A stretch of DNA of 64,000 nt from a virus: IMG/VR virus record IMGVR_UViG_3300005095_000128, positions 1 to 64,000 of that record; one strand, written 5' to 3'. Shown one piece after another: positions 21,604-56,090 of this stretch (the stretch's first letter is position 1; the number at the start of each line of letters is the position of its first letter). The notes beneath the pieces are model-generated. The model was not told the DNA's origin, ran no database searches, and saw nothing but the letters and a program-made list of their open reading frames with translations. The position numbers and the translations under genes were made by a program.

Positions 21604-21606
21604 ATG

Positions 21607-21681
21607 TGGCTGGCCGGGTAGGAGTCGAACCTACGACCAGGCGGTTAACAGCCGCCCGCTCTACCACTGAGCTACCGGCCA
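21607..21681 (-). tRNA. tRNA-Asn(GTT)
   Basis: Cloverleaf with D-arm TAGCTCAGTGGTAGAGC, anticodon loop CT-GTT-AA, GGTTCGACTCC and encoded CCA. Confidence 0.96.
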
Positions 21682-39200: not shown

Positions 39201-40547
39201 CTACGCAACCGCTCCTCGCGCAACGTGGAAGGCCATCCGCTCCGTACCCGGTCGCGGCTTGCTAGCAGAAACCTGGAAACCGAACAGGAACCTCCATCGT
39301 CGCTTCTTCGCTAGCCAGCCGTGCGGATAGAACAGGTTGGCAAGTTCGTCGAGGTAGTGCCTCATGTAGGACGGCATGCGCTCAAGATCGCGCTTCATTC
39401 GCTCGAGGAAGGTCAACCAAACCCATGCACCATACTGGGAGCCGTAGCGGTAGACCCAGCGCCAGTTCTCGATCCACGCAAGCAGCGTGGAGTGGGACAC
39501 GCCAACCGCCCTGGCCGCCGCCCGCACACTCGCACCAGCGTTGATGAGCATGAACGCGAACGCATGACGCGGCGACCACTCAGCCTTCGAGGCGCCAAAA
39601 ACGTTGTAGGCAACGTGAATCTTGGGCTCCTGGTGGGTGGTCGGTTTTTCGGGTGTAATCATGGAAGCATCCCCTTTGTTGTGAGGTTGCAAGCCATTAT
39701 TAATCTCCTTAAAGCCGAGGAAAGAAAGTGAGGCGTTCAATTCATGCCCGGCGTCATAGAACGGTATTTTGACCACCGGAGCAATTTGCTTAAAGCTCTC
39801 CTTACTAAGCGTTCCTAAGTAAGGAGAGCTTTCTTTCCTAACATCCACTTGACGTAAGGTGCTGTAGAATTCGACGAAGAAATCCTTAGCAATCCTATCA
39901 AGGTAGAGTAAGATACTAAGACCTCCAAGGTTACTAGTGATGCTAACGTAGCCGTACTCCTCGAGTCTTAGTAGATACTTTCTAAGTACATCGAGATTCA
40001 TAGGAGCTACGCGGAGCAATTCCGCACGCCGGACCATCAGCCTTGGTGTTCCAAATTTCTGTCGCTCGATTTTTTTCGCGGTGCTACGCAACGGACGCGG
40101 GCGGGCGAGCGCGGCGAGCAGCGAGTGCAGTACGCGTGATGCGTTCGTATCTGGCAGCTTCCACGCCGCCCATGCGCCACTCTCGAGGCCGCGCACCATG
40201 CCGCTGGCCACGTCGCGCACGGTCAGCGGCTTAGCAAACTCCTCGCTTTCGAGAAGAATCTCACGAGCCCCATCGTAGCCGTAGGCGTCGATGAGGTCGC
40301 GCACTGTGGCCTGCCCCACGGCGTCCATGTCGAGGACGCGTGGGTATGCTCGCTTGTAGATGGCCAAGCGCTTGGCTACGCCCTTTGCCTTCCTGTGCTG
40401 GCTCCTTGGGAAGACGATGAGCACTTCCTCGCCATCGCGCACCTCGCTCTCGCGCCAGGTGGCTCTCGTTCCTAGCGCGAGCTCGAGCATCTTGGCGTCG
40501 CCTGGCGAGTAAGCCAGCACAACCATATCGGCGTGAGTATACATCAC
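39201..40547 (-). CDS. Putative replication initiator (winged-helix plus C-terminal HTH)
   Basis: LRKYLLRLEEYGYV wHTH, ASVRAAARAVGVSHSTLLAW HTH, and an internal AT-rich palindromic DNA block. Confidence 0.5.
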   Translation of the reverse strand: MMYTHADMVVLAYSPGDAKMLELALGTRATWRESEVRDGEEVLIVFPRSQHRKAKGVAKRLAIYKRAYPRVLDMDAVGQATVRDLIDAYGYDGAREILLESEEFAKPLTVRDVASGMVRGLESGAWAAWKLPDTNASRVLHSLLAALARPRPLRSTAKKIERQKFGTPRLMVRRAELLRVAPMNLDVLRKYLLRLEEYGYVSITSNLGGLSILLYLDRIAKDFFVEFYSTLRQVDVRKESSPYLGTLSKESFKQIAPVVKIPFYDAGHELNASLSFLGFKEINNGLQPHNKGDASMITPEKPTTHQEPKIHVAYNVFGASKAEWSPRHAFAFMLINAGASVRAAARAVGVSHSTLLAWIENWRWVYRYGSQYGAWVWLTFLERMKRDLERMPSYMRHYLDELANLFYPHGWLAKKRRWRFLFGFQVSASKPRPGTERMAFHVARGAVA

Positions 40548-40623
40548 TCGTAAAAACTATGCAAGACCCATCATCGTTGACGCTGGGGTGGATGATATGC
40601 TAACCTTTGCCCAGGAGGTGTGT

Positions 40624-43547
40624 ATGCCTGACATCGAAAGAATGGCGAAGCGTATCGCGAGGGAGTGGAAAGATGATGAAATCTTCGAGCTCATCAAGCA
40701 TATTGACCTCATCGTTGGCGATTGCCAATTTACCAAAACGATGCACGACTACTTCGACCGGGCAGTGACCTACGATTGCTCTGAAGTGGAGGAGGGTTGA
40801 TGCGCAGACTCATCGACTTTTTCATGTTCGACCTCGTTGCGTGGATCAAAGCACGTAGCTATGGCGTTATCTCCGTGCACGAGGAGAAGCTCGGCAACTT
40901 CTCTATCAAGGTTTACAAGGTCAAGCGTGACGTCTTTTTCATCTCCGGGCGCCACGTGTTCGTCGGCCCGAGCTTTCAGCAGTTCTGGGAAGGCAAGCTC
41001 AAGGTCGTGGCCTTCGTGACAGCGTGCATCCTAACCAAGGCTCCGATTCGTGCCTGGCTTTGCAAGGAGTGCCAGCGTAGGGCGATCAAGCTTCTGAGCA
41101 ACATGTACCAGAAGTCAACCGACCCACCTTTTGTCGATGGCTCGTGGGTGAACATCTGCTTGCGGGAGGTGTCCAAGCGTGGTGCTGCTTCTTGATATTG
41201 CAACGGCTATTGCTCTTGGTGCCATCGCCATCCCGATCGTCAACGCCTTCTACTTCGCGTTTGCCGACTTTAGGGAAACCGGGCAGCGCGGGTTCATCTA
41301 CCCGATGCTGCTTAGTGCGTTCATCGCAATCGACATCATGCTGTGGTTAGCCGTGCACGAGCTCAAGATCGCGCTTGGCGGCTTCATGACTGGCATCGTC
41401 ATCGGCGCTTTTCAAATCGCGCTCGAGGAGGCATAGGCAGTGCGGTTTCTGGCTGGAGTATGCAAGCTACTTGATGCGATTGGCACGATCCTTGGTGGCA
41501 TCATCTACGGCATTATGTTTGGTATTGCGTTCGTGCTCGTCGTGATTGCCACCACGATAGACTACGTGCTCGATGCCATTCGCGAGTTCGTGAGTTGCAA
41601 GAAGGATAGCGGCTTCGATGAAGTGCATGGGGAGGCATGATGAGTCGGTGCGTGGCTAGAGTGACGGTGTTTATCAAGGGCTTTTCCATCTATGAAGAGA
41701 TAGTGCCAGTTGAGAAGCTTCCGCAAGACCTAGATGCCGCTTTCGATGTTGGCACGGCACTTCTTGCATCAACCGGAACGCTTCTCGAGGTCGAAATCGA
41801 GGAAGGCGTGCGGTTTGCGCACTCCAAGGAGCTAGAAGCGTACATCCTGCATAAATTCCTCGAGAAGTACGGGCGCGATCTATTACGCGTGCTCGAGCCA
41901 GAATGGATCAAGTTAGATTACGAGATCGTGAACATTGCCGCCGAGTACCGTGGTGAATGATTTGCGTGATGCGTTCTTGCATGCGGTCAAACGCTCGAGG
42001 TGCCTGGCGTGCGGGCGCGTAGGCGTTGACATGGCTCACGTGCCCTACTGGTCAACGAAGCTGGGCCGCTTCGTTCGCCCCTCGCACAAGGGTGTGGGGT
42101 GGTTTTTCGCCATTCCGCTATGCCGGCAATGCCACCTCGAGCAACACCGCCTCGGATACGAACGCTTTGCGGAGCGTAAGCTTGGTGGGCTGCTAGCTCA
42201 GTATCGCTGGATTGCGCATACCATTGCATCGCTACTTGACATGCATGCACCTAAGTGTGATACGGTTGACACATGCGGGAGGTGGATACGTGAGGCAATT
42301 GAGTCGGAAGCCGCCTGCGCCGGGGCAGGACGCAATTGAGCACTACCGCATGCTGCTCGAAAACGTCGGCATTACGTACTACACCAAGGAGATCGCGCGT
42401 TTGCACCGCGATGGAAAGGTGCCGGATGAGGCGATGCTTCTTGCGCTCAACATCGCGCTCGAGGCTGAGCAGAAGCTAATGACGATCTACCGCGACTACG
42501 ACGATGATCCGACTATGGAGAACCTGAAGGAGCTTATCGACTAGGGGGTTAGTATGGGAATCGCGCTATTGTTCGCCGTAATGGCCGCAACCTTCTTCCT
42601 CGTCGGAATGCCGGCGTGGGGGTGGTTCATCACAGCCATCGCCGCCGTGCTCGGTGCATTTGAGCTCTACCTGCACGTGAAGTACCGGCAAACGCTCTCC
42701 TCGCGTTTCTACCACACGTGGAAGACGCGGCCGAGAGCCATCATCATCGTCGGCATCGTATTCTTCATCGTGCTCGGCCTGCTCATCTACCACCTGCTTG
42801 GATACTGGGATGGTAGCCTTGATCTTACGCGGCCGATGAGGGGGATGGTGTGGGCAAGTTGCGCGTGCGCGTAAATCTTGAACGCGACGATGGGGTTGTA
42901 GCTCGTTTCGAGAAGGTCGTTGAGGCAGACGACAAGAGCGCATACGAGCTCTACGACTTCATCGTCGCACACGTGAACCAGTTAGAGCAACGTGAGCGAA
43001 TCACAAAGGCACCACCGGTTAGAGAGTCGACGTAAGAAGGCATGGGTATACCAGACCTCGCTCTCCCCGCTCGGGCAGTTGATCTTGATGCTCCTCAACC
43101 TGGGCGGGGGAGCGTTCCACATCAACGAGGTGATCCTCGCCATGTACCGGAACGGCTTTTCGAGGAGGGCGGTGATAGCGACGATAGACAAGCTTGGAGA
43201 CCTCGGGCTCATCAAGTCGGTTGGCGCCGGTCACTGTATCACGCTCACCGAGAAGGGGAGGTGGAACCTTGCTTCGGGCAATAGCGCTGGCGTGCACGAT
43301 GGCGAGGCTGGCTAAGCAGGTTGTGGCCGCGACGGCGTGCACCCACGTCGATCGCTGCACTTCGCCCGTAGAAGTATTCGAGCAGTGCGTCGACGGGGCG
43401 ATGTTTGCCCGCTTCGCCGTCGATGAGTTGAAGCGTCCGCGCATTACCGGCGTTGTGTGCTTCTTCGTCGGTTTGTTATCATGGTTGCGGCATGGCACGA
43501 AGCACATCGAATCCGTCGCGCAAAAGTTCATCGAATCCGCCGGATAG
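40624..43547 (+). other. Operon of small hypothetical/membrane genes (40624-40800, 40797-41195, 41179-41436, 41440-41640, 41637-41960, ~42290-42544, 42554-42874, 42850-43035, 42992-43315 wHTH, ~43299-43547)
   Basis: Tightly coupled plus-strand ORFs with SDs, downstream of extended -10 TGCTAACCT at ~40598-40606. Confidence 0.6.
41935..42339 (+). CDS. DUF968-like HNH/zinc protein
   Basis: CLACG...AHV...AIPLCRQCHLEQH. Likely start is GTG at 41953. Confidence 0.7.
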   Translation: MPPSTVVNDLRDAFLHAVKRSRCLACGRVGVDMAHVPYWSTKLGRFVRPSHKGVGWFFAIPLCRQCHLEQHRLGYERFAERKLGGLLAQYRWIAHTIASLLDMHAPKCDTVDTCGRWIREAIESEAACAGAGRN

Positions 43548-44241
43548 CTACTACTCCGTGCCAGAGCTTGCGGAGATCCTCGGAGTATCGCGCACAACGA
43601 TCTACCGGCGTATCGAGAAGCTACGCTTGCGACGTTTCCGCGACAAGAACGGGCACATCTACCTAACACCCAATAGCGCCGAGCGGCTCATGCAGTCCTT
43701 TCCTGGCGAGGTGACGCATGAGTGGATTCCAGGGTGGATCACAACGGGCGAAGCAGTAGAGCGCTACGGATTCACGAAGGCGACTTTCAAGTGGTGGATT
43801 ATCACCGGTAAGGTACGTGGCAAGCGCTACCGTCACCTGTGGATCATGGACCCGCGCTCGGTGGAGGAGTACATCGCTAAGCGCAACACGGCTCCGCAAG
43901 GATGGGTTCCGGTTCGCGAAGTAGCCAAGCGCACCGGACGCACCACGAAGTCGGTTATTCGCCTTGCGCGGGCAAACGGGTGGCCGTTACGCAAGTACCG
44001 CCACGACGGGTATCTTGTCTTCCACATTCGGAAGAGCGATGCACGGATTCTCGAATCCGTCGATGAGCTAGTTCCCGTCTCGAAGTATCTTCGCGAACGC
44101 TACGGGCTTAGCGATAGGGCGATCGAGCGCGTCGTAAAGCGGCTCGACGGGCGCATCGTTCGCCTTGCGTACCGCGAGCGGTTTGCCAAGCAAGAAGACA
44201 TCGAGGAGGCTTATCATGCGACTTTCGGTAAAGCTTCTTAA
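43492..44241 (+). CDS. Tandem excisionase/MerR-like HTH protein
   Basis: YYSVPELAEILGVSRTTIYR, WITTGEAVERYG, WVPVREVAKRTG, plus a fourth degenerate unit. Confidence 0.75.
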   Translation: MARSTSNPSRKSSSNPPDSYYSVPELAEILGVSRTTIYRRIEKLRLRRFRDKNGHIYLTPNSAERLMQSFPGEVTHEWIPGWITTGEAVERYGFTKATFKWWIITGKVRGKRYRHLWIMDPRSVEEYIAKRNTAPQGWVPVREVAKRTGRTTKSVIRLARANGWPLRKYRHDGYLVFHIRKSDARILESVDELVPVSKYLRERYGLSDRAIERVVKRLDGRIVRLAYRERFAKQEDIEEAYHATFGKAS

Positions 44242-44557
44242 CGAGGTGGCTGAGCGTCTCGAGCGCAAGAACCGCGCGTATGCCGGCGGCCAGCACAAAC
44301 ACATCAACTTCATTATTGGCAAGGACGTACTCAACTACGACGAGGCGTGGCAGGCGGCGCTGGCCTACGCGACAAAGCATATCGCGACCCTACTCACGTG
44401 GTTTAGAGAAGGCAAACTCCCGGAGGACAGCGAGAGGGTGGCCGAGGTGCTCGGCGACATCATCGCGTACATGGCACTCATCTACGAGATTCACGAGGAG
44501 GCAAAGCGTGCCGAGGAAGAAGGCGATCACTGGGTCTCGTCGACAACTTACCCGTGA
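44216..44557 (+). CDS. Nmad1/DUF1599-like (MazG-superfamily) nucleotide-modification-associated protein
   Basis: KNRAYA...NF...KH...LGDIIAY pattern. Confidence 0.55.
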   Translation: MRLSVKLLNEVAERLERKNRAYAGGQHKHINFIIGKDVLNYDEAWQAALAYATKHIATLLTWFREGKLPEDSERVAEVLGDIIAYMALIYEIHEEAKRAEEEGDHWVSSTTYP

Positions 44558-44878
44558 GCAACTTGCCGAGTTTGCACCAAAGCTCAAGGAGGCCAAGCGC
44601 ATCGCGAACAAGAACCCCGTGCTAGGGTACTTCAAGATTCGCGCGATCATCGAAGAGTTAGAGCGACGCTACGGCGTCAAAGATGGGCGTGAGTACCTGG
44701 CAGAGATCGAGGCCATCGGGAAGGAAGATGATACAGGGTAGGATCGTTTACCGCGTCGCAAGGGGCGGGCCGCTTGATGGCTTCCGGCTCGCCACGCTCG
44801 AGGACGACAGAGAAATCATCGTTAGGCTGGATGACGGCAAGTACGTTTACGAGGTGCACGAAAACGAGTTGAGATACG

Positions 44879-45337
44879 TTGGGGTGCTCTATGAAGATGG
44901 AGGAGAGGCCGAAGATCGTTGAGCTCACGAACGTGCTTTGGGAGCTCGCGAAGCTATCGGCCGAAGCCGTATGCGAGCAAAACGGCTCACGAGCCGGTGT
45001 GACGGCACACGCGGCCGAGTTCTGCTACCTAGTTGAGAGCCTACAATATGACAACATCGCAACGCTAAACACCTTCGGCGAGGTTGACGAAGAGGCTTAT
45101 AGCTCGGTTGTGTACGTTGCCGAGCGCTCGTCTACCATCGATGGGAACGACACGTTCGAGGTGCACGATGACTACCGCGTGGTTTATCACCAGCCGACCG
45201 GTAGGGTATTCGCCGTGCGCAATGACGTGACGGAAGGAACCTACGACCTTGGCGGCAACGTAGTGCTCGTCGTGCACGCTATGAACGACCTCGAGGCACT
45301 CTTTGCCAAGGAGCTCGATCAACCAAAAGCCTTTTAA
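44879..45337 (+). CDS. Hypothetical acidic protein (last gene of the plus operon)
   Basis: ORF followed by a terminator; preceded by small ORFs ending at 44741 and 44922. Confidence 0.55.
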   Translation: MGCSMKMEERPKIVELTNVLWELAKLSAEAVCEQNGSRAGVTAHAAEFCYLVESLQYDNIATLNTFGEVDEEAYSSVVYVAERSSTIDGNDTFEVHDDYRVVYHQPTGRVFAVRNDVTEGTYDLGGNVVLVVHAMNDLEALFAKELDQPKAF

Positions 45338-45342
45338 GCGAG

Positions 45343-45618
45343 CAAAGTAAACCGGCGCCGGTTGTTCCGGCGCCGGATGTTTTACCTAGAAGGGGCGCTT
45401 TGAACCGACCCGACCTGACCCGCCTAGTCTATCCGGTAAGGAGGCTCCTATGAGGAACGAACCTGGGAGGGTGCTCAGCTCTGGCACTTGCCGCGCCCAC
45501 GGCCTTGGAAAGGAGGTGCGATGATCCGGTTAAAACCCCCGCGCTGATGGACCCGAGGAGGTGATAGCCTTGCACCGCCCCTTCTAGGTTTTGGCCAGGA
45601 GGGCTTTCCTCCTTGGCT
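45343..45618 (-). ncRNA. Candidate ~270-nt sRNA with multiple anti-Shine-Dalgarno segments
   Basis: Own promoter and terminator; 14-bp closing stem (45384-45397/45576-45589); contains ATCACCTCCTC, CATCGCACCTCCTTT, CCCTCCC and CATAGGAGCCTCCTTA. Confidence 0.65.
45352..45376. terminator. Bidirectional intrinsic terminator
   Basis: CCGGCGCCGG-TTGTT-CCGGCGCCGG with T-rich tails on both strands. Confidence 0.8.
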
Positions 45619-45624
45619 ACCTAG

Positions 45625-45654
45625 ATCATACTAACCGCACGCGGCGTGTGTCAA
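45625..45654 (-). promoter_or_regulatory. Sigma70-type promoter
   Basis: TTGACA-18 nt-TATGAT. Confidence 0.75.
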
Positions 45655-46151
45655 CCCTTCTTCTTGCGCCGGCGCTTTGGCCTAGCGGACTCCCAGCGCT
45701 CCTCGTTGACGTTGGCCTTCTCGAAGTAGGTCTTGAGCACGTCGTCGCGCTCGATGCCGAACTCCTCACCAAGGCGTAGTAGGAGGTACGGAACACGCCT
45801 CGAAAAGCGCACGCTACCGGCCGCCGCAAGGATGTGCCTGATCGTATCCGGCATGTCCTTTGGTGTCACGTCTTCGTAGAGTAATTGCGTGCCGTCAGCA
45901 CGACCATCCTTTAACACGAGTGCAAGTGCGAAGTGCAGCACGTCGGCGAGTTCTTCGGTGGCACGCTCCTTGTCGGTGACGAAAGCGTCGCCGTGGCGCT
46001 TCCACCACGCCCACTTGCCTTTGACCGCGTTCAAAAACTCTCCGAGCTCGGCGACGAGCGCAACCACAAGCTCGCCACGGGTCGGCTTGTACTCGAGCTT
46101 GTCCTGTAGCTCGCGTTGTCGTTCTAGGGTATCGGCTAGGCTATACATCAT
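45651..46151 (-). CDS. dut: Dimeric (all-alpha) dUTPase
   Basis: ALVAELGEFLN, WAWWK, EELADVLHF and KANVNEER motifs. Confidence 0.88.
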   Translation of the reverse strand: MMYSLADTLERQRELQDKLEYKPTRGELVVALVAELGEFLNAVKGKWAWWKRHGDAFVTDKERATEELADVLHFALALVLKDGRADGTQLLYEDVTPKDMPDTIRHILAAAGSVRFSRRVPYLLLRLGEEFGIERDDVLKTYFEKANVNEERWESARPKRRRKKKG

Positions 46152-46438
46152 CCCTCCTCGATGGCCTTCTTCTGTTGCAACCGAGGTGCCGGGTTGAGCT
46201 TCACCATGCGCCGGCGCACGCGCATACCGCGAATGTCGCCGCCGAAGTTCACACTAAACAGCCGTTCGTGCGGAACGAACTTGCCGCACTTTGCAAACAT
46301 GACATGGTTGCCCTTCACGAGCACCTCGTCCTTGATGAGATCACAGTACGCACGCAAGACGGCTTCAACGTCTTGCTGGCGCACCCCGGTGCGCTTGGCG
46401 ATTTCGCGCTTAATGTCGAGCATCTTCCACGTCTTCAT
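46148..46438 (-). CDS. HU/IHF-like DNA-binding protein
   Basis: IAKRTGVRQQDVEAVL...GKF...R...VKLNP; start MKTWK with SD GGGGG. Confidence 0.8.
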   Translation of the reverse strand: MKTWKMLDIKREIAKRTGVRQQDVEAVLRAYCDLIKDEVLVKGNHVMFAKCGKFVPHERLFSVNFGGDIRGMRVRRRMVKLNPAPRLQQKKAIEEG

Positions 46439-46575
46439 GTTCCAACCCCCTAACACACATAGCGGAATGTGCGCGGATTTCTTTATCCGCGCACACCCAG
46501 AGTGAGGCAAGGAAGGCGTGCCCCGTTCGGCCTCGCCCTTTTGGTTTTGTCACGGGCTACCGCCCGTGCAATAGA

Positions 46576-46636
46576 AGCATAGCGCATTAGGTGCCCCTTG
46601 TCAAGGGTTGCATATATGTCGCACACGTGCTATGTT
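46576..46636. promoter_or_regulatory. Back-to-back sigma70 promoters
   Basis: Minus: TTGACA-17-TATGCT (46604-46576). Plus: TTGCAT-17-TATGTT (46608-46636), 6 nt before ATG 46643. Confidence 0.7.
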
Positions 46637-46642
46637 GCTCGT

Positions 46643-47005
46643 ATGAACGGTGCGTGGCGTAGCAAAGAGGTCACGGTTGGCTACCTTTGCCGCATTGGCG
46701 AGGTGATTTTTGTTTATGAGGCTGGCCACGCACCGCCAAGTATCACCATCCCCATCCCAGTTACGTTGCCACGTGTCGTGGAAGGCAAGGAACTCCAGTC
46801 TATTCTTCTAGCAAAACCAGAGATCGTCGATCAATGGATGAAGTTCCCGCTCAACATCGGAGATCGAGTCGTGCACCTTGTCGTCTACGGAAGTGGCCAC
46901 GAGTGTAGCCGACACTTTAGGTGCGAGTTCGGTGACGACTTTTTCCACAAGATGGCGCACGTGCTCAACGCGATCAACCGCGCGTTGCGCGGAGGTGGTA
47001 AGTGA
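46643..47005 (+). CDS. Hypothetical protein (leaderless)
   Basis: ATG 6 nt after the -10 box, no SD. Confidence 0.55.
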   Translation: MNGAWRSKEVTVGYLCRIGEVIFVYEAGHAPPSITIPIPVTLPRVVEGKELQSILLAKPEIVDQWMKFPLNIGDRVVHLVVYGSGHECSRHFRCEFGDDFFHKMAHVLNAINRALRGGGK

Positions 47006-47493
47006 TGGAAAGCAAATGTGAACTGGTTAAGGTTAGCATAGCTGAGGCTGCCGATGGCATTGCATGGTTGTTGCTAAACCGACACGAGCATATGTGGCTT
47101 GCGGCAAAGTTCGCCGCGATTTTGACAGAGCGTTTCGCGCGTATGGATGATGTAAGCGACGACGAACTCGTCGACACAATCCTGGCGTGGGGAGTGCGCT
47201 ATTTGTACAACCATACCAATGGTTCCGTACACTTTCCGCACCACTCACTCTTTGCGTTCATTGCAGTAGCATCTCGACGGTATGTGCTCACTTTAGATGG
47301 GCTCGGGCGCGTCTTGAGTGACACGTGGAGCTTGCGCTTTTCACTTACACAACGTGCACTAGGCGCGGATAGCGAACTCATTGTTCGCGTAGGTGGAGCG
47401 ATTTCGGAAGCGCTTGATCAGATCGGAATGCACGAGCTTGCATCCGATGTGTCGCTATCCACGGAAAGCATGCTAGTGCTCGAGGCTAGTTAG
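47002..47493 (+). CDS. Hypothetical protein
   Basis: Coupled ORF with GGAGG SD. Confidence 0.55.
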   Translation: MMESKCELVKVSIAEAADGIAWLLLNRHEHMWLAAKFAAILTERFARMDDVSDDELVDTILAWGVRYLYNHTNGSVHFPHHSLFAFIAVASRRYVLTLDGLGRVLSDTWSLRFSLTQRALGADSELIVRVGGAISEALDQIGMHELASDVSLSTESMLVLEAS

Positions 47494-47936
47494 AGCTCGA
47501 GTTCAAAAGCAGCAAGCTGTGCGGGTGCGCAACCGAGCGACGGGTCGATGATACTCACGGATACGCCGATGCTACCGTACTGCATGCAACCAGAGCGCAA
47601 CATGACCATGATCGACCCGAAGTAATGGCCATCTAAGTTGAACATCAACGACGTGCCATTGCTAACGTGCGTAACCCGCACGCGCTTGCTAGCGGCAACC
47701 TCCTTCACCTTGCCGCTCTCGTCTAGAATTACGTTGGCCGCATCTTTTGCTCCGTTGCGCACGATGAGCATGCGTGTCTCGCCATCGATGGCTACGCTGA
47801 TTTGGTCTTTGCCGTAGTGCGCGTCGTCGAGTTCAATGCGGAACCCGTCGTCAAAGACGATCACCTTCGCATTTGGTTTAATACGCCTAACCCTCATCTC
47901 GCCGACATTATAGCGGCGTTGTGGTGAGGTTGCCAA
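47490..47936 (-). CDS. Hypothetical beta-rich protein
   Basis: Likely start MRVRR (~47897) just after TATAAT. Confidence 0.5.
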   Translation of the reverse strand: MATSPQRRYNVGEMRVRRIKPNAKVIVFDDGFRIELDDAHYGKDQISVAIDGETRMLIVRNGAKDAANVILDESGKVKEVAASKRVRVTHVSNGTSLMFNLDGHYFGSIMVMLRSGCMQYGSIGVSVSIIDPSLGCAPAQLAAFELEL

Positions 47937-47937
47937 T

Positions 47938-48246
47938 ATGCTAACATCTGAGGTGATGGAAGTCGGGCTCTACACGATCGACAAAAGTAAGCCGGTGGAT
48001 AGCATTGCTCGCGTGATCCGCCGCACACGAGAGCGTCGCGGGATTCCACAGCGCGAACTTGCCGCGAGGACCGGCAAGACGCGCACGACGCTAAGTAGGA
48101 TGGAGTCTGGCAAGCACGACTTGCGCATTAGCACGATCGTCGAGTTGCTCGACGAGCTCGGCATGGAGCTCATTGCCGTTGACCGTGATACGGCGGCAAT
48201 GCTACGCGACATGTTCGAGCTTGACAAAGAGAGAGACGCGGGTTAA
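47938..48246 (+). CDS. XRE-family HTH regulator
   Basis: IRRTRERRGIPQRELAARTGKTRTTLSRMESG...ISTIVELLDELG. Confidence 0.88.
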   Translation: MLTSEVMEVGLYTIDKSKPVDSIARVIRRTRERRGIPQRELAARTGKTRTTLSRMESGKHDLRISTIVELLDELGMELIAVDRDTAAMLRDMFELDKERDAG

Positions 48247-48249
48247 GCT
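48221..48249 (+). promoter_or_regulatory. Sigma70 promoter for the Y-RNA-like cluster
   Basis: TTGACA-17-TAAGCT, followed by ~290 nt with no credible ORF. Confidence 0.75.
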
Positions 48250-48289
48250 ATTGGCGATGTCCGATACGGGCACCCGACAACGAGCAAGC

Positions 48290-48397
48290 GCGAGCGGTAT
48301 GCCGTGGCGGGTTATTGGGCGAATAGCTAGAGGTTCGACTCCTCACCATAGCGCGGTCAAACCGCGCGTGACTCCCGCCACGAGTTCGACCGCTCGC
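48290..48397 (+). ncRNA. Y RNA-like RNA 1 (with T-arm)
   Basis: Stems GCGAGCGGT/ACCGCTCGC and CGTGGCGGG/CCCGCCACG separated by an ATGC/AGTTCG internal loop; GAGG-TTCGACT-CCTC T-arm; adjacent to Ro60. Confidence 0.75.
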
Positions 48398-48414
48398 TTC
48401 TAATACGAGAATCT

Positions 48415-48498
48415 CCCCGGTATGCTGCAAGGGGTTACCGAATGTGGATCGGGACACCCTGCTAAGGTGTACAAACCCCCTTGCGAACTTGACCGGGG
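48415..48498 (+). ncRNA. Y RNA-like RNA 2 (with D-like and anticodon-like arms)
   Basis: CCCCGGT/ACCGGGG and GCAAGGGG/CCCCTTGC stems; same GGTATGC 5' motif; 3' CTTGACC; ends in TTGATTTTT. Confidence 0.7.
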
Positions 48499-48545
48499 TT
48501 GATTTTTATCTCTAGGGGTGATAAGCTTGCTACCGGGAGGATGAG

Positions 48546-50048
48546 ATGCAGGTTAACCGTGTAAAGGGTATGTATAATAGTGCTCGTTCAAAGCTTCCTG
48601 GCCGCGAACATGAGATGACCTATAACGACGCCGGTGGCGCCGTCTTCATCGACGATGCGAAGCGACTCGAGCGGTTCATCATTCTCGGCATCGACGAGGG
48701 GACGATCTACGCTACGCCGGAAGAAATCCATGAGCGTACCATCGAGCTTATTCGCGAGCTTCCCTATGAGACCTTCAAGCGCGTCATGATCGAGGCGGCA
48801 CCGAAAGCGTGGCGCAAGCGGAACCCGATTGCGGCCATTGCGATCCGCGCCGCCCTTACCGACGATCGCGCTCTCATTTTCAACGATTTGCTACCGAACC
48901 TTCCTGGCTTGTTCAAGACGCCCTCCGACCTGCTTTACTTCGCCTCCATGTACCGTGGCGCGTTCAGGAAGCCGTTTAGCCGCTCGGTGCGCCGGTTCGT
49001 CCAGCGCAAGCTCCACGACTTCGACGACTACCAGCTTGCCAAGTACCGCAAGCGCTATGGCATTTCCACGAGCGATCTCCTAAAGCTCGCGCACCCGCAC
49101 CCTGGCGATCGCAACGCTGTCTTCCACTACCTCCTGGATGGTGAATACACCGACGAACTTGCCGGCACCATCTTCGAGGGCCTCAAGCTGGCCAACATCG
49201 CCGGTACGGTCGACGAGGTGCTCAAGGTCGCCGAGCGCTTCAACCTCTCGTGGGAGATGCTCCCCTCGTGGGCGCTCAAGGATGCGGACACCTGGGTTGG
49301 CCTCTACCGCATGGGCAAGATTCCGGCAATGGCGCTCCTGCGCAACGCATGGCGCTTTGACCGGGATGGCGTACCAGGCGATGTTTTCGATAGCGTTGTG
49401 GAAGATCTCTCCAAGATCCACCGCCGTGGCGTGCACCCCGGGTACATCCTGACGGCCGCCATCGAGTTAAAGCGCCGCAACGCAAGCTACGATTTGGTCG
49501 ATGCGCTCTTCAAGGCGTTCGACGCCGCATCGAGTAGCAACGCTGCGCACGACATGCGCATCGGGCTTGCCATCGACAATAGCGGCTCCATGTGGTGGGG
49601 CATGATCGGTGGGATGTTGCGCCTCGAGGCCGCACTCGCGCTTGGTAGCGTGATCGACTCTGCCTTCCGGCGCGTATCGGTGACCTACTTTAGCAATAGA
49701 GCGTACAACCTCAACATCCGCCCGCGTTCCGCGCTCGATAGCTTCGAGGATACGTTGCGCGAGTATAGCGGAGGCACTAGCGTGGCTAGCGCTCTAAGCC
49801 ACCTTGCCGATCGCCGTGGCGACGGATACGACGCGACCGTAGTGATCACCGACGAGCAGAACTGGGCTGGCGAGAGCGTGCAGATGACCTACCAGCGGCA
49901 CAAGAAGACGCTTGGCAAGCTCATCATCGTGACCGTTGACGCTAGCGCGAAGGGCTCGCTCACCGACCCCAAGGATCCTGACCAGGTGACGGTCGTCGGC
50001 TTGGTGCCCGAGATCGACAAGGTGATCGCTGAGTTCGTGCGCGGGTAA
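48546..50048 (+). CDS. Ro60/Rsr (TROVE plus vWA) RNA-binding protein
   Basis: NDAGG...RLERFIILG..GTIY, KYRKR...DLLKLAHP, WE.LPS, MALLRN, HP, DNSGSM MIDAS, GGT and ITDEQNW. Own promoter TTGATT-17-TAAGCT at 48499-48527. Confidence 0.92.
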   Translation: MQVNRVKGMYNSARSKLPGREHEMTYNDAGGAVFIDDAKRLERFIILGIDEGTIYATPEEIHERTIELIRELPYETFKRVMIEAAPKAWRKRNPIAAIAIRAALTDDRALIFNDLLPNLPGLFKTPSDLLYFASMYRGAFRKPFSRSVRRFVQRKLHDFDDYQLAKYRKRYGISTSDLLKLAHPHPGDRNAVFHYLLDGEYTDELAGTIFEGLKLANIAGTVDEVLKVAERFNLSWEMLPSWALKDADTWVGLYRMGKIPAMALLRNAWRFDRDGVPGDVFDSVVEDLSKIHRRGVHPGYILTAAIELKRRNASYDLVDALFKAFDAASSSNAAHDMRIGLAIDNSGSMWWGMIGGMLRLEAALALGSVIDSAFRRVSVTYFSNRAYNLNIRPRSALDSFEDTLREYSGGTSVASALSHLADRRGDGYDATVVITDEQNWAGESVQMTYQRHKKTLGKLIIVTVDASAKGSLTDPKDPDQVTVVGLVPEIDKVIAEFVRG

Positions 50049-50050
50049 AC

Positions 50051-50440
50051 ATGGGCGTCGTGCACGTCTATAGCCCGAACTACGGCTACTCCGGCAAGCT
50101 CCACCCGTGTCCGGTGTGCGGCTACGAATACGACCGCGGCGAGCACTACCTACAACGCCCGTGTCCCGTATGTGGCGCCGCCGAGCTCGAGGTCGAGAGC
50201 TTGCCGGAGCTTGTGCACGGCGCCGTCTCGACGTTCGTGCATAGGTATGGTATCCCGCGGCGTGAAATCGCCCAAGTTATTGGTATCTCGCCACACACGC
50301 TCAAGTCGTGGGAATACCGCAAGTGTACATATGAGCAGTTTGAGCGCTTTAGCGAGGCGATTCGCTTGATCGCCGCAGAGCGCAAGTTGTACGACGTGGC
50401 ACGGCGTGAAGAGGCAGAGCACGAGAACGGAGGTGCATGA
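50051..50440 (+). CDS. Zinc-ribbon plus HTH protein (MqsA-like architecture)
   Basis: CPVCG x2, then YGIPRREIAQVIGISPHTLKSWE. Confidence 0.65.
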   Translation: MGVVHVYSPNYGYSGKLHPCPVCGYEYDRGEHYLQRPCPVCGAAELEVESLPELVHGAVSTFVHRYGIPRREIAQVIGISPHTLKSWEYRKCTYEQFERFSEAIRLIAAERKLYDVARREEAEHENGGA

Positions 50441-50862
50441 TGGAATGGCTTGTCATTTGGTTCTACCTCATAGATGTCATCGACACTCTCAATATTCTTT
50501 CTGGTCTACTCGCACTTGCGGCTGCTGTCTTTGCTGGCATGGCATGGCTAGTGTCCATCATGACGCGATCGGAGCTAAGGAGCTATAGCGTACGCGACAA
50601 TGAATCGGCACAGCGCATACTACTGGAGCAGTTTCGCATTGAGCGCAAGATCGCGATTGTACTCACCGTTGCATCCGTCTTGCTCACGACTATTAACGTG
50701 CTCGCACCATCCCGCACGACAATGGAAAGGATGCTAGCCGCAAAAGCGCTCGTTGAAGTTGTCAACACCGATGCAGCCAAGCGCATCATCCCGAAGAGCG
50801 TTGAGCTAATTGAACGCTACCTGGACAAAGCACTACGCGACGACGAAGACAACGGGAGGTAG
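50437..50862 (+). CDS. Membrane protein
   Basis: Two TM segments; APSRTT...PK motif common in phage membrane proteins. Confidence 0.6.
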   Translation: MMEWLVIWFYLIDVIDTLNILSGLLALAAAVFAGMAWLVSIMTRSELRSYSVRDNESAQRILLEQFRIERKIAIVLTVASVLLTTINVLAPSRTTMERMLAAKALVEVVNTDAAKRIIPKSVELIERYLDKALRDDEDNGR

Positions 50863-50865
50863 AGC

Positions 50866-51621
50866 ATGGTGATCGCCGAGAATGATGTCTTCGATCTAGA
50901 CGACATTGATGGCCTAACGGAGGAGCAGAAGGCCCAGGTCGTTAGTTTGGTTGCTAGAAAGCTCTGGGAGCTTGAAGAGGGCACTACGGGGCGGCTCGAC
51001 TTTGCCGGCAAGAGCTATGACCCGGCAACGATCGTTAAACTCGATGGCGCATACCGTGTGCACTCCTACGTTTATTCCCCACAGGGACGTAGCTTCGTCG
51101 CACCCACGCTCAACGATGCGCTCAACCACTTTCTTGCGGCTGTGCTAATGAACCTTACGAAGCTACCGTGGTGCGCTGCTAAGGCGATGGCACTTACGCT
51201 TTTCCCTACGCCCACTCTCTTTACCGACGACGAGATCGCGCTAGCCAAAAAGAGCGGCATGTGGACAGGCGAAAAGTACGACGCGCTTGCCAAGCAGCTA
51301 TGCGCCGGCAAACGGGAGCAGCCGTTTGCCACCTACAAAGTTGATGGTGCGATCGACATTACCAACCTACTCATGGAGATTGCCGAGTACTACACGGTCG
51401 ACGAGATTGGCCGCGCGTTCGTGTACGTGCGCATGGCAAACGAGCTCGCGCAAGATGGTCGCGCTCTGGTCGACAAAAGCGGTAAAGAGCCCTGGCTTTC
51501 CGTGCCGACCAACCCGCTTTACTTCAAGAACGGCTACCTGGTGGTTCCGCGCGGATACAAAGCGCGTATCGTCGAGGATGAGCGGCACTACGGCCGCGTA
51601 GTATTGGAGCGTGCGAAATGA
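50866..51621 (+). CDS. Hypothetical protein
   Basis: 251-aa ORF with GGAGG SD. Confidence 0.6.
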   Translation: MVIAENDVFDLDDIDGLTEEQKAQVVSLVARKLWELEEGTTGRLDFAGKSYDPATIVKLDGAYRVHSYVYSPQGRSFVAPTLNDALNHFLAAVLMNLTKLPWCAAKAMALTLFPTPTLFTDDEIALAKKSGMWTGEKYDALAKQLCAGKREQPFATYKVDGAIDITNLLMEIAEYYTVDEIGRAFVYVRMANELAQDGRALVDKSGKEPWLSVPTNPLYFKNGYLVVPRGYKARIVEDERHYGRVVLERAK

Positions 51622-52025
51622 CCTTCGAGGAGTGGTTCGAGTCGCTCGAGAGATCTGAAACGGAGAAGCTCGCCTATAGCCTCGTGATGGCGCTAAACGC
51701 CGAGCGGTCGTCGATCTGGCTCGCACCGACGGCGCGAGCACTTGTCGGCACGTTGATAAGCGCCGTTGCGTCCATTGCCCTATCTCAGTGGTACATTATC
51801 GGCTTGCTCATCGGCCTTATCTTGCTCGAGGCAACGGCGAGCAAGGTCTACGTGCTTGGCGAACTCGACGAGGGTTTAGAGGAAAGCTTCATTACACAGC
51901 TATACGCGATGGCCTATTGGGTAGAACGGCACAACGTCGACAAGATGCGCTTCTTGCGCTACGCCACGATGGCGTACATGTGGGTAGTGGCGGTAGTGCT
52001 CGGCATACACCTCATCGCATTCTAG
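51618..52025 (+). CDS. Membrane protein
   Basis: Hydrophobic segments; ATGA coupling. Confidence 0.55.
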   Translation: MTFEEWFESLERSETEKLAYSLVMALNAERSSIWLAPTARALVGTLISAVASIALSQWYIIGLLIGLILLEATASKVYVLGELDEGLEESFITQLYAMAYWVERHNVDKMRFLRYATMAYMWVVAVVLGIHLIAF

Positions 52026-52039
52026 GCGTCTACAAAAGT

Positions 52040-52062
52040 GCGGCGCGGCATAGCCGCGCCGC
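52040..52062. terminator. Bidirectional terminator
   Basis: GCGGCGCGGC-ATA-GCCGCGCCGC flanked by AAAA and TTT, between convergent genes. Confidence 0.75.
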
Positions 52063-52063
52063 T

Positions 52064-52519
52064 TTATGCATGCGCACCGATATATAGCGTGCCATACGTT
52101 GACGAGGCAACCATCACGTTCGACGGAGCAAACCATGTCACCGTGTCGAACGCGATGTAGTGATCGGTCTCGAGCTTCGCCGGGACGAATGCGATCCAGT
52201 CCTCGTCGCCGTAGAGCGTGGATAGCTTCTGTAGCTCGCGAGGCGCTTCGCCAAACCGCATCACGATGGCTAGGTTGCGTTCGACTGCATAGCGGATTGG
52301 TTCGATCTTCAATAGCATCTCGTCGAACTCGCGTTGTACGTCAAACCAGTATTGCGGCGTGGTCTTTAGATAGCGCGACAACGCATTGGCGATGTCTTCG
52401 TTCACGACAAGCCATCCATCCAAGAATAGGGAGAGCACGTCGTCGTTTTCCATCTCAATGGCCAGTACGTCGTTGTTGCCGATGAGTTCGTCCGCTACTA
52501 CATGTGGTGGCTTTGCCAT
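52064..52519 (-). CDS. HigA-antitoxin-like HTH protein (orphan, leaderless)
   Basis: PPH...VNEDIANALSRYLKTTPQYWFDVQREFD matches the HigA/VapI pattern. Confidence 0.65.
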   Translation of the reverse strand: MAKPPHVVADELIGNNDVLAIEMENDDVLSLFLDGWLVVNEDIANALSRYLKTTPQYWFDVQREFDEMLLKIEPIRYAVERNLAIVMRFGEAPRELQKLSTLYGDEDWIAFVPAKLETDHYIAFDTVTWFAPSNVMVASSTYGTLYIGAHA

Positions 52520-52564
52520 GTGCGTAGTATAGCACACTAGCTAGCCATCAGCTATACTAAACGC

Positions 52565-53026
52565 ATGAAGCTCGTGCACAGAGATTTGTTTGACTCGGTA
52601 CATACTATATCGCATGACACACTTGTCCTCGTCGTGACAACAAACCGCATGCAGGATAGCCGTGGGTGCCTTGTCATGGGCGCCGGAGCCGCCAAGCAGA
52701 TGGCCGAGCTATACCCGCTAGCACCGTGCAAACTCGGACGCATCGTGGATGCAAAGGGCAAGGGCGATTACTACCTCGTGGTTTGGGAGGAGCACAGGCC
52801 ACGCCTCGGTGCCCTACAGGCCAAGCGACACTGGCGAGACCCATCGCCGATTGGTCTCGTGCTATCGAGCATTGAGGCGCTACGCCGCTATGCGCTTGAG
52901 AACCAAGATCTAGAGATCCACGTCAACTTTCCAGGTATCGGCCTCGGCGGATTAAAGGAACAGGAGCCCATTATCCTCAAGGCGCTAGAGCAGTTGCCGA
53001 GCAATGTCTTCGTGCACAAATTATAG
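52565..53026 (+). CDS. Macrodomain (ADP-ribosylhydrolase-like) protein, leaderless
   Basis: DLF, TTN, MGAGAAKQ, KRHWRDPS and PGIGLGGL motifs. Confidence 0.85.
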   Translation: MKLVHRDLFDSVHTISHDTLVLVVTTNRMQDSRGCLVMGAGAAKQMAELYPLAPCKLGRIVDAKGKGDYYLVVWEEHRPRLGALQAKRHWRDPSPIGLVLSSIEALRRYALENQDLEIHVNFPGIGLGGLKEQEPIILKALEQLPSNVFVHKL

Positions 53027-53067
53027 CCGCCAGCTGTTCTAGCTAGCGGCAATGCGTAGCCGATTGC

Positions 53068-54877
53068 TCACCAATGAAGCGGTATGTGTAGCATCTCCGG
53101 GCTTAGCACGCGCTCAACTACAACCAGGTTCTGTGAGGTTGTGAGGGCGAAGTCGTACACGTGAACGACATCTTTGCTCACATCTACTACGCCAAGCGAG
53201 AACTCGACACCATTGATGGACGGTTTGAAGGCATAAGCTAGGAGTAGCTGTGTTGACGCTACCTTGAGGATTTCAACGGACGGAGGCGCATTCTCGTACT
53301 CCGATTTCGTGATGCCAATCTCAATGGGCGTGCTATATGCACGTGCGAGGATGGTCGTGCTAGGATTATCACCAAACAGGCTCATGTGTGGTACAATAGT
53401 GATGACATATGCGTGATTGCTCTTTTTGCTGACATAGAGAACGAGTAAGTCGTTAAACTCGTATGTACTTCCGCTAGAATTACGCTCGTGCATTATACCA
53501 CCCCCTCTACAATGACGCGAACAAGCACCTCGTCCACTCGCTCGTCATCAAATGCGAGCGACACATCGGCAACAAGATTGCGGTCTTCGATACGCCAATC
53601 AACGTATGCAGAATACAAGTGTTGCGTATTGCCGTTGAGATAGCTTACGTGTGCACTATACGCTTGTGCAACAAGCTCTACGTAGCACTTACACGCGTCA
53701 ACGCGCGACACTAGGACTTGCGTTAGTGCCGGTCCTTCGAACAAAGGGAATGGAACAATGAATTCCGTTGTCGGTACACCATCGCCAGCGCCCTCAATGA
53801 GCACCTCGAGTGCATCATCGGGGTCGTCCCTCAAGAGGAAGCGCATGGTAGCGAAGTACGTGTTGTCGCGTCTAATGACGATGGCGTCCTTATTTAGCCC
53901 GCTCTCGGCAACGACGGAACCGCTATCTGTCTTAGCGCTAATATAGGCGATACGCGTCTCATGTGCCAACTAGAACACCCCCTAATCGCACTCGATCTTT
54001 ACTTCATCCAACTTGAAACTAGCACGCAAGCCGGCGTTAGCATTCTCGGCAGCAACGTCTAGCTCTGGTAGCTTACGGCGAACCTCCTCCACGATTGCAT
54101 CGTGAATTTCATGCCGGCTAAACCAGCTACCATCGAGGCGGATTGCGACAAACGCGCTATCCGACTCGTTGAACTCTTGCACCACACGCTCGAGAGCGGC
54201 AACCGCTTCGTCGCTAGCACCTCCCCCCGGATAAGCCTCGAGTTCTATAACGAACACGTCCATGTAAATGCTCGGCATGCTTAACCTCCAATGACGAACA
54301 AGATGCTATGCCCGCGAACCGCCACACGCACTACATCGCCTTCGATGGTAATCTCAAAACGATAGCCTGGGCTGAAACGCACGCTAAAGGTATCGCTATA
54401 AACGCGCTCTATGGCTAAGCCAGCTTCTGATAACACCCTATCGACCACGAGTGCGCCATTGCTTACGTCAAACGACACCGAGTTATCGTATTCGCTGTGG
54501 CTTGGACCGTAGATGACCGTCAAGTATTGCCCGTCAAAATACGCGTGATGCTCGTGGTCGAATGAGTACGCCTCACCAACGACGCGGGCAAGCGCTACGC
54601 TCAATGGCTCGTCATTCTCGACTTTGAGCGGATGGCCGTATTGGAGCACGTCGGCTAGGCTCGTGTTCGCGGAAAGTTGCAGGAACACGAGCTCACCGCC
54701 TCGCTCCGATACACCGAAGGCGCCCCTCGCAGTGTTGCTAGCGATCACGCTCGAGTTGCGCACCAACCGCGCAAAGTCGTCAATGGAATGGACGACAATC
54801 ACCTTCAGGTCTTCGACGTCTTGCCTTCTCATCATCTCACCCGCCCATAGCTTAACCCACAGGTGCATTATGTGCAA
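53068..54877 (-). other. Operon of four hypothetical genes (53068-53493, 53493-53969, 53982-54278, 54281-~54835)
   Basis: Coupled minus-strand ORFs with GGGGG/GGAGG SDs; beta-rich; no recognisable motifs. Confidence 0.55.
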
Positions 54878-55871: not shown

Positions 55872-56024
55872 AGCAACCCCATTGTACCCGGGTGGTGCAA
55901 TATATGCAACCCCGCCTATATAGGCTCCATGCCGCGCACAAAAATCGCACTACCCCTCCCATCGGAAAATGGTGGGGGTGCGGTTAGGGTTGACACCATC
56001 GATACCGTGGGCTAGACTGATAGT

Positions 56025-56090
56025 GCCAGCTACGAGAACCCTTGTGGGAGTTGGGCCGGGCTCCGGGAAACCGGAGCCCGGAAGCTTTTT
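56025..56090 (+). ncRNA. Candidate ~65-nt sRNA
   Basis: Promoter TTGACA-17-TAGACT (55990-56018), a 5' hairpin, then terminator CCGGGCTCCGG-GAAA-CCGGAGCCCGG..TTTTT. Confidence 0.6.

Follow-up and report, generated by a model that had tools for sequence, protein, structure and literature searches.

A constrained orphan stretch between convergent phage genes, a candidate small RNA gene with anti-Shine-Dalgarno words

The virus record IMGVR_UViG_3300005095_000128 of IMG/VR (83,581 nucleotides [nt]; approximately 61% complete according to CheckV) contains a 313-nt gap, 45338-45650, that is flanked by convergent genes. We analyzed this gap within the first 64 kb of the record (the whole stretch of 64,000 nt, here called the window), using the remaining part of the record where stated. 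A sequence-only reading of the window had proposed that the minus strand of the gap encodes a phage small RNA (sRNA) that displays an array of guides against the Shine-Dalgarno (SD) sequences and start codons of mRNAs. Here, we find that the gap is probably occupied by a real minus-strand RNA gene, judging from its signals and its conservation among strain variants. That such an RNA would function through anti-SD pairing is more doubtful, and we put it at somewhat less than an even chance.

The locus

The gene to the left of the gap is an orphan, the one match of its product in a protein search (1 of 1) being the protein itself. To the right lies a gene for a protein of the dUTPase_2/MazG-like family, the TGA stop codon of which occupies 45651-45653. 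The features of the locus, in the order in which they would be met along the minus strand, are listed below.

45651-46148, minus strand: right neighbor gene, dUTPase_2/MazG-like family, downstream of an HU-like gene
45649-45654, minus strand: −35 hexamer TTGACA, overlapping the stop codon of the dUTPase_2-type gene
45625-45630, minus strand: −10 hexamer TATGAT, behind TTGACA with a spacer of 18 nt
45594-45617, minus strand: predicted 5′-terminal hairpin of 9 pairs with arms GCCAAGGAGG and CCUCCUGGC, loop AAAGC, and one bulged A
45576-45589, minus strand: 5′ arm of the clamp helix, a perfect 14-bp inverted repeat
45556-45565, minus strand: anti-SD stretch A, AUCACCUCCU, with an anti-TTG 4 nt to its 5′ side
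45509-45518, minus strand: anti-SD stretch B, CACCUCCUUU, preceded by an anti-ATG (CAU)
45465-45471, minus strand: anti-SD stretch C, CCCUCCC, with no start-codon complement at a usable distance
45437-45444, minus strand: anti-SD stretch D, CCUCCUUA, preceded by an anti-ATG (CAU)
45384-45397, minus strand: 3′ arm of the clamp helix, a perfect 14-bp inverted repeat
45344-45376, minus strand: predicted intrinsic terminator with 10 G-C pairs (hairpin at 45352-45376), loop AACAA, and tail UUUACUUU
44891-45337, plus strand: left neighbor gene, orphan

The minus-strand promoter, the 5′ hairpin, the perfect 14-bp stem, and the terminator that the sequence-only reading had named are all present, as are the four segments in which it had recognized translation start regions. 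On the plus strand, these SD/start-like segments read TAAGGAGGctcctATG (45437-45452), GGGAGGG (45465-45471), GGAAAGGAGGTGcgATG (45507-45523), and GAGGAGGTGATagccTTG (45555-45572).

Transcription signals

The minus-strand promoter TTGACA-18-TATGAT (45654 to 45625) scores 11/12. In the whole record, both strands included, matches of at least 10/12 occur at eight sites and matches of 11/12 at two sites only. Another promoter-like site, at 46604 on the minus strand, is located just upstream of the HU/dUTPase operon, which suggests that high-scoring sites mark real starts in this phage. From the usual 7-nt distance to the −10 hexamer, transcription from the site in the gap would start at the A at around 45618. 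On the plus strand, no promoter-like site was found in 44500-46500, as both sites scored there are on the minus strand.

The terminator hairpin at 45352-45376 is flagged on both strands and also ends the plus-strand gene 44891-45337. Its tail reads TTTACTTT in the minus-strand and ATGTTTTA in the plus-strand orientation, the minus-strand tail (UUUACUUU) being better than the plus-strand one (AUGUUUUA). Read on the plus strand, the body of the element comes directly behind this terminator, and no plus-strand gene lies downstream. The signals favor the minus strand as the working strand, and their best reading is a separately promoted, terminator-ended noncoding unit on that strand.

No terminator-like site was found on the minus strand between the dUTPase stop codon and 45376, and transcripts of the HU/dUTPase operon would therefore cross the stretch. 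As read-through from the 46604 site would suffice, minus-strand RNA over the body is expected with or without a promoter of its own. The stretch could then be a long structured 3′ untranslated end of the operon combined with an insulator, with no function in trans and with an incidental promoter and incidental SD words. Its position between convergent genes that have a terminator in common fits such a role, as does the frequency of promoter-like sites of at least 9/12 in 44-64 kb, which is about that of shuffled sequences (15 versus 11.0 ± 3.3). We nevertheless regard this explanation as quite unlikely, since only one other site in the record scores 11/12, a hairpin lies exactly at the predicted 5′ end, the clustering of GGAGG words is unique in the record, and the constraint on the stretch matches that at the nonsynonymous sites of the flanks (the last two are described below).

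Two further arrangements of signals were seen. At 55990-56090 on the plus strand, TTGACA-17-TAGACT (10/12) precedes, by approximately 40 nt, a G+C-rich hairpin of 11 pairs with a T-run, and gene 56091 begins just after these with its GTG; this promoter-to-terminator unit could yield a tiny RNA or act as an attenuator. At the locus itself, TACCTAGA forms a direct repeat at 45383-45390, on the outer edge of the 3′ arm of the clamp, and at 45618-45625, between the −10 hexamer and the putative start. If the start lies a few bases earlier, a leader with TACCTAGA could compete with the clamp.

Inverted repeats, anti-SD stretches, and predicted fold

In the hairpin at 45594-45617, an SD-like word is base paired to an anti-SD-like one; given a start at around 45618, this hairpin would stand at the very 5′ end of the RNA. 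The arms of the clamp are 178 nt apart and form Watson-Crick pairs throughout, enclosing a body of 206 nt. There are 14 perfect inverted repeats of at least 12 bp in the record, and the clamp is the longest of those with arms more than 16 nt apart.

The density of SD-like words in the body has no equal in the record. The word GGAGG has 111 plus-strand and 103 minus-strand occurrences, and nowhere else on either strand do four or more fall within 200 nt (five copies here; the minus-strand maximum is three). Their complements give the minus strand its C-rich words. The sequence AUCACCUCCU corresponds to the 3′ tail of 16S rRNA, and two of the stretches copy 10 nt of that tail. Likeness of these two stretches to the tail beyond the core 10 nt was not counted because it requires indels.

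For statistical comparison of the predicted fold, the sequence 45340-45622 was shuffled 200 times. None of the shuffled sequences folded as well as the minus strand (z = −3.46), and three folded as well as the plus strand (z = −2.44). Predicted minimum free energies are −84.9 kcal/mol (minus strand) and −80.2 kcal/mol (plus strand). The body is also tighter on the minus strand, with a predicted ensemble diversity of 37.7 versus 59.2 on the plus strand. Apart from clamp, 5′ hairpin, and terminator, the single sequence is predicted to fold into a multibranched, poorly defined interior with many helices of 2 to 5 bp. A 6S RNA was considered and rejected, as this predicted interior does not resemble a long rod with a central bubble and the stretch has no Rfam match.

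Constraint among strain variants

Contigs from three sequencing runs represent strain variants of the phage (X1, X2, and X3), and all three carry the element. The variants are mutually related, and their contigs are consensus sequences. Over 44800-45740, all 25 differences are listed for X2, 14 of 16 for X1, and 12 of 17 for X3. In X2, 15 of the 25 differences fall in the upstream coding sequence, including 13 inside gene 44891-45337, 12 of which are synonymous, and the final 50 nt of the dUTPase gene account for another six. The remaining four are in the 313-nt gap, at 45377 and 45380 (the linker between clamp and terminator), 45476 (the body), and 45619 (just before the putative start).

These numbers are low. 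At the synonymous rate of the flanks (0.133), 41.7 changes would be expected in the gap and 27.5 in the 206-nt body, compared to the 4 and 1 seen in X2. The all-site rate of the flanks predicts 10.5 changes in the gap and 6.9 in the body (P = 0.008 for the single one seen). Constraint on the stretch is as strong as at the nonsynonymous sites of the flanks. The promoter hexamers, their spacer, and the minus-strand U-tail are all unchanged in X2, the CCUCC words are unchanged in the variants, and the effect of the changes at 45377 and 45380 is limited to a weaker plus-strand U-tract. Among the listed differences, X1 has none in the gap and X3 has one, 45476, as in X2. Judged from these contigs, the stretch is under constraint.

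Six differences common to X1 and X2, two of them nonsynonymous, are packed into 28 nt (45672-45699) at the end encoding the C terminus of the dUTPase-like protein. This crowded segment sits just upstream of the unchanged promoter.

A constraint that is uniform over the whole body is also what an RNA bound by protein would show, and the stretch might serve as a decoy or scaffold, its 16S-tail-like or GGA words titrating an rRNA-cleaving toxin, a maturation nuclease, or a CsrA-type regulator. The two stretches with 10 nt of the 16S tail, the GGA words (eight on the plus strand and six on the minus strand), and a nearby island of antitoxin-like genes together with a Ro60 gene are compatible with such a role. 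Against it, the GGA words are not predicted within hairpin loops, the 83.6-kb record has no bS21 gene, and Rfam, including its CsrB/RsmZ-type families, gave no match. We consider a protein decoy improbable.

Homology searches

At the gathering score, the Rfam matches in the whole window were two tRNAs only, and at an E value of ≤10, there were five noise matches (internal ribosome entry site, sroD, and small nucleolar RNA) in 45250-45750 and two in 40000-54000. Families of the RsaE and CsrB/RsmZ types were not matched in the stretch. ARAGORN likewise found two tRNAs at 21.5 kb and none in the stretch. These are adjacent genes at 21529-21681 on the minus strand, for Gln(TTG) and Asn(GTT), and have identical acceptor-stem sequences (Rfam and ARAGORN).

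In sequence space the phage is isolated; among the 394 matching phage records, none has a terminase more than 33% identical to its own. A blastn search with 401 nt around the element gave no match among 50,697 phage records, and searches of viral_contigs with both flanking proteins, the terminase, and a dUTPase alignment (A1) were also without matches. The same dUTPase alignment found one locus in a metagenome scan (L002, 37% identity), where the gene is followed by a terminator only, with no look-alike RNA. The protein relatives found were a dUTPase of 60% identity on a 2.6-kb ENA contig (P0002) and a Ro60 of 46% identity on a 79-kb JGI contig (P0005), the latter contig not being found in viral_contigs.

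Bacterial genomes were compared in three sets: 5 genomes, 301 genomes of the phylum of a Caldilineaceae genome, and 401 genomes of the phylum of an Actinomycetospora genome. Matches were found in 4, 7, and 9 of them, respectively (per-genome E value of ≤1 or 0.01), all scattered and 17 to 43 nt long, and were judged to be due to chance. One of these, in an Actinomycetota genome (locus L113, genome G652), reads AGGAGGCT.CTATGAGGAACG.ACC and matches 45439-45463 at 23 of 25 positions in a real-looking start region (AGGAGG, 5 nt, ATGAGGAACG). About one match of this type is expected by chance, as its per-genome E value of 0.003 applies to 401 genomes. In 81 loci (80 bacterial Ro60 loci and the dUTPase locus above; 546 kb), the best blastn-short E value was 0.46, and nhmmer found nothing.

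Scans of viral_contigs with three patterns derived from the RNA, for anti-SD arrays or the 5′ hairpin, gave no match for one pattern. The matches to other patterns were rejected because they lie in coding sequence: all 12 of one set inside open frames of at least 348 nt that encode Pro/Gly repeats, and all 33 further ones inside open frames of at least 294 nt. The only notable minus-strand open reading frame (ORF) of the stretch has 48 codons, and its product had a single match (P0007; E = 1.4e-4) among 1.84 billion representatives. We do not consider this 122-amino-acid protein, which consists of three 27-amino-acid repeats and comes from one read-assembled soil record, a credible relative; its sequence may derive from translating an 81-nt tandem DNA repeat that bears some resemblance to 45450-45520. 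On the evidence of these searches, no known RNA family explains the stretch, and we treat it as an orphan.

The stretch is a single copy in the record. This bears on the idea that it is a DNA element with no role as RNA, either a small foldback insertion resembling a miniature inverted-repeat transposable element or a relic of deleted plus-strand gene junctions. Perfect inverted ends of 14 bp with Watson-Crick pairs throughout, the direct repeat of TACCTAGA at 45383 and 45618, and the resemblance of the SD and ATGA words to phage gene junctions would all suit such an origin. We think it very unlikely, as no second copy turned up in the record, the phage database, the 5, 301, and 401 bacterial genomes, or the 81 Ro60-type loci; as each of the three variant contigs spanning the site carries the element; and as strong constraint is not expected of selfish or relic DNA.

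Accessibility, targets, and the plus strand

Several of the observations collected in this section weigh against a minus-strand sRNA that acts on ribosome-binding sites. To begin with, the CCUCC words are not predicted to lie in loops. The four body copies have a mean unpaired probability of 0.19 to 0.43 and the copy in the 5′ hairpin one of 0.0, and opening a whole anti-SD stretch would cost 4.2 to 6.2 kcal/mol, compared to a median of 5.8 kcal/mol for all 8-mers. The claim that the guides are displayed thus does not agree with the predicted fold. Neither are the words locked in stable structure, because the interior fold is ill-defined; they appear to be neither displayed nor buried. The most open segments adjoin the CCUCC words and are complementary to the spacer and start codon of a start region.

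The phage genome itself offers no clear target. Complementary words of at least 13 nt are absent, two have 12 nt, and those of 11 nt are no more numerous than in 30 shuffles (11 versus 15.1), leaving no sign of excess complementarity. The earlier finding of no exact targets accordingly holds for matches of at least 13 nt and fails for the best phage match, a 12-mer (GGAGGTGATAGC) that lies beyond the window, in the region where a gene at 72295 starts. A match of this type is expected from any strong SD. Duplexes predicted with RNAduplex between the body and 130 start regions (−31.3 versus −28.8 shuffled for the GGAGG class and −29.4 versus −29.4 for the SD-less class) are uninformative because huge internal loops were allowed.

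Among 131 crude gene calls, GGAGG precedes the largest class (46 genes), GGGGG precedes 20, and 38 have no SD-like word; approximately 10 have a −10-like hexamer 5 to 10 nt before the start, mostly in the early region at 40-58 kb. To say, as the sequence-only reading did, that many genes are leaderless or use GGGGG, and so might escape the RNA, was an overstatement, since the 46 GGAGG genes would not escape. For the same reason, unselective anti-SD action would harm the phage, and a general SD sponge would hit most phage genes too.

Two regions have probable leaderless starts. At 52480-52570, the divergent genes 52519 (minus strand) and 52565 (plus strand) each have TATACT 6 nt before the ATG, with promoter regions that are near mirror images; the arrangement resembles a palindromic control region that gives rise to two leaderless messages. 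At 47897-47936 on the minus strand, TTGGCA-18-TATAAT (11/12) ends 9 nt before an ATG at 47897, and the ORF call from 47936 is probably too long, the message from 47897 probably being leaderless.

The strain variants also provide counterevidence. The one change in the body, 45476, breaks a predicted G-C pair on the minus strand and would give a G-U pair on the plus strand. Between 45146 and 45671, coding sequence included, no change is listed for X1, and because this change-free tract enters coding sequence, recombination may add to the low diversity. Near-uniform constraint over 206 nt moreover exceeds what is usual for an sRNA that pairs through a seed. There is no homologue in the collections searched, and the four sequencing runs that contain the stretch are all DNA contigs of one study, with no RNA run among them.

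A further point is the coding pattern of the plus strand, where the body contains the following chain of micro-ORFs.

45400-45453, plus strand: micro-ORF of 17 codons, SD-led
45450-45524, plus strand: micro-ORF of 24 codons, SD-led
45521-45547, plus strand: micro-ORF of 8 codons, SD-led
45547-45564, plus strand: micro-ORF of 5 codons, no SD
45570-45587, plus strand: micro-ORF of 5 codons, SD-led

The first three ORFs are linked by ATGA and ATGA and the next by TGATG, and the SD-to-start spacings (5, 4, and 8 nt) are within the range of phage genes. In 6,670 windows across the record, chains of at least three occur at 3 loci, the sole chain of four being the one here, and a comparable chain arose in 1 of 2,000 shuffles of the region, a statistic that is post hoc and comes from shuffles that did not keep the SD and ATG words. 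The overlaps go beyond what an array of anti-start regions would predict, because in-frame overlaps are meaningless on the other strand. The sole body change, 45476, is synonymous in the 24-codon ORF (45450-45524), which may count as one data point for the plus strand.

The plus strand could accordingly be the one that works, as a short message with coupled, AGG-rich micro-ORFs of 17, 24, 8, 5, and 5 codons, most of them behind strong SDs. These might be minigenes that load or stall ribosomes or tie up tRNA, or they might encode tiny basic peptides, and the minus-strand RNA could then be a fully complementary antisense regulator. The bar regions of phage lambda are toxic minigenes. As described in the part of PMC2490762 available to us, minigenes of 3 to 8 codons and early AGA/AGG codons inhibit protein synthesis through tRNA sequestration. 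The chain here resembles them in its very short SD-led ORFs, some AGG codons, and carriage by a phage; it differs in being an overlapping chain of 5 to 24 codons behind a terminator, with no signal that supports plus-strand transcription (comparison with the same part of PMC2490762).

Coupled micro-ORFs on the plus strand had already been offered as an alternative in the sequence-only reading, and the shuffling result has strengthened that alternative, but its transcription is hard to account for. The chain is directly behind the plus-strand terminator with its 10 G-C pairs, the scan of 44500-46500 scored no promoter-like site on this strand (a bare TAGTCT at 45425-45430 can be picked out by eye), and no plus-strand gene follows. 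In addition, micro-ORFs that begin at 45450 leave unexplained why the variant has no change in the 66 nt of the body ahead of the first ATG (45384-45449), and the peptides are not hydrophobic, unlike a type I toxin. Overall, we hold a working plus strand to be unlikely.

Ro60, Y RNAs, and the host

A Ro60 gene (TROVE and vWA_Ro60 domains) lies 2.9 kb from the element, at 48546-50048. The noncoding 250 nt or so upstream of it hold two Y-like modules (48.25-48.5 kb), one with a T-arm (GAGGTTCGACTCCTC) and neither with the GNCGAAN0-1G word of YrlA. The locus of these Y-like RNAs has the same layout as the element, with TTGACA-17-TAAGCT within the end of gene 47938-48246.

The element could in principle be a third, noncanonical Y RNA bound by the phage Ro60. 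Bacterial Y RNAs are located within 4 kb of Ro60, with the best matches on the same strand, according to the part of PMC4201824 at hand. By these criteria, the candidate resembles YrlA in lying less than 4 kb from Ro60 and in the pairing of its 5′ and 3′ parts, as the ends of Y RNAs pair. On the minus-strand reading, however, it and Ro60 would be encoded on opposite strands; the GNCGAAN0-1G word is absent from both strands of 45338-45655; ARAGORN and Rfam found no T- or D-arm; no similarity to the 81 bacterial Ro60 neighborhoods was found; and two Y-like modules, one with a T-arm, already stand directly upstream of Ro60. We rate a Y RNA as scarcely likely, the least probable of the alternatives considered, which rank in the order of plus-strand micro-ORFs, 3′ untranslated region with insulator, protein decoy, DNA element, and Y RNA.

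The phage Ro60 is at most about 30% identical to other phage copies. An alignment of Ro60 used against genome contigs found 80 bacterial loci with 27% to 33% identity, mostly in Actinomycetota and some in Chloroflexota, and the host cannot be named from Ro60 because these loci are too distant. As a second clue to the host, ThyX was searched in a protein atlas and matched viral clusters only.

Discussion

Our preferred explanation, which we put forward tentatively and at a little under an even chance, is an sRNA of approximately 275 nt, transcribed from the minus strand, that acts on ribosome-binding sites through C-rich words resembling the 16S rRNA tail. From sequence features we infer that the RNA is made, where it begins and ends, how it pairs, and what it targets. 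Host RNA polymerase would start at the near-consensus sigma-70-type promoter inside the last codons of the dUTPase-like gene and produce a noncoding RNA from around 45618 to around 45345, ending at the strong terminator common to the convergent gene. A tight 5′ hairpin would protect the RNA end, and the 14-bp helix would hold the 206-nt body shut at its base. In the loosely folded body, four 16S-tail-like CCUCC stretches, three of them with a start-codon complement at an SD-to-start distance, would pair with the SD/start regions of host or phage mRNAs and thereby block binding of the 30S subunit. Of the guide array as originally conceived, the separate minus-strand unit, the constraint, and the lack of a known family have been borne out, and the display of the CCUCC words and the complementarity to the phage genome have not.

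A bolder version of this sRNA is a long shot. A 16S-tail mimic made in bulk early in infection might soak up SDs, or a factor that recognizes the tail, and so tilt translation toward leaderless early messages until the late strong-SD genes take over. This would amount to a global, RNA-based takeover of start sites rather than a gene-by-gene one.

The candidate can be compared to several described RNAs. The 6C RNA of Actinobacteria (B11/6C in Mycobacterium tuberculosis) is a C-rich sRNA of less than 100 nt that acts on mRNAs in bacteria without Hfq, with its C-runs in two hairpin loops. The Ro60 of this phage is nearest to actinobacterial ones, and Rfam gave no match to 6C. Closer in design are RsaE and other Rsa RNAs of Staphylococcus aureus, RoxS of Bacillus subtilis, and the loops of RNAIII. 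As far as PMC2790875 was available to us, the Rsa RNAs combine several C-rich words with a 5′ hairpin and a terminator, and an unpaired UCCC blocks formation of the initiation complex in the Rsa/RoxS class. The candidate has a predicted 5′ hairpin and classical terminator of the same type, with C-rich SD-complementary words, and the block of initiation-complex formation proposed for it is alike. Measured against the same portion of PMC2790875, its words differ in being longer copies of the 16S tail (CCUCC plus flanks) instead of UCCC and in not being predicted to be unpaired, located as they are in a 206-nt body under a 14-bp clamp; the candidate is also phage-borne, about twice as long, and without an Rfam match, RsaE included.

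Noncoding RNAs of phages are known from other settings. In cluster A mycobacteriophages (L5, D29, and StarStuff), a strong early promoter at the genome end drives abundant, stable early noncoding RNAs that have no conserved ORF of more than approximately 30 codons, with evidence from transcriptome sequencing and Northern blotting (PMC5712189, in the sections available). The candidate is phage-encoded like them, shares no sequence match with them, and is known from sequence alone, in contrast to those RNAs (PMC5712189, same sections). The c4 antisense RNA of P1/P7 pairs around a ribosome-binding site and blocks translation of one phage target, ant (PMC12197685, in the part available); for the candidate, no target stands out in the phage genome by comparison with that account of c4. 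No phage RNA carrying an array of 16S-tail copies is described in the literature searched, including the part of the review PMC12197685 that was available. By analogy, the candidate is a variant of the C-rich, SD-targeting sRNAs in kind and is unusual in being phage-borne, multisite, and clamped.

Few phage sRNAs have a known job, and almost none of these come from phages of nonmodel hosts. The stretch described here is a well-delimited, constrained orphan candidate. If the sRNA proposed here is real and acts as suggested, a phage would be reusing the C-rich sRNA logic of Gram-positive bacteria in a multisite, clamped format, and the RNA would offer a handle on how translation is steered in a phage with both leaderless and strong-SD genes. 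If the plus-strand chain of micro-ORFs is what works, the stretch would represent another rarity, a natural minigene array. With its Ro60 and Y-like RNAs, this phage may be unusually rich in RNA-based functions.

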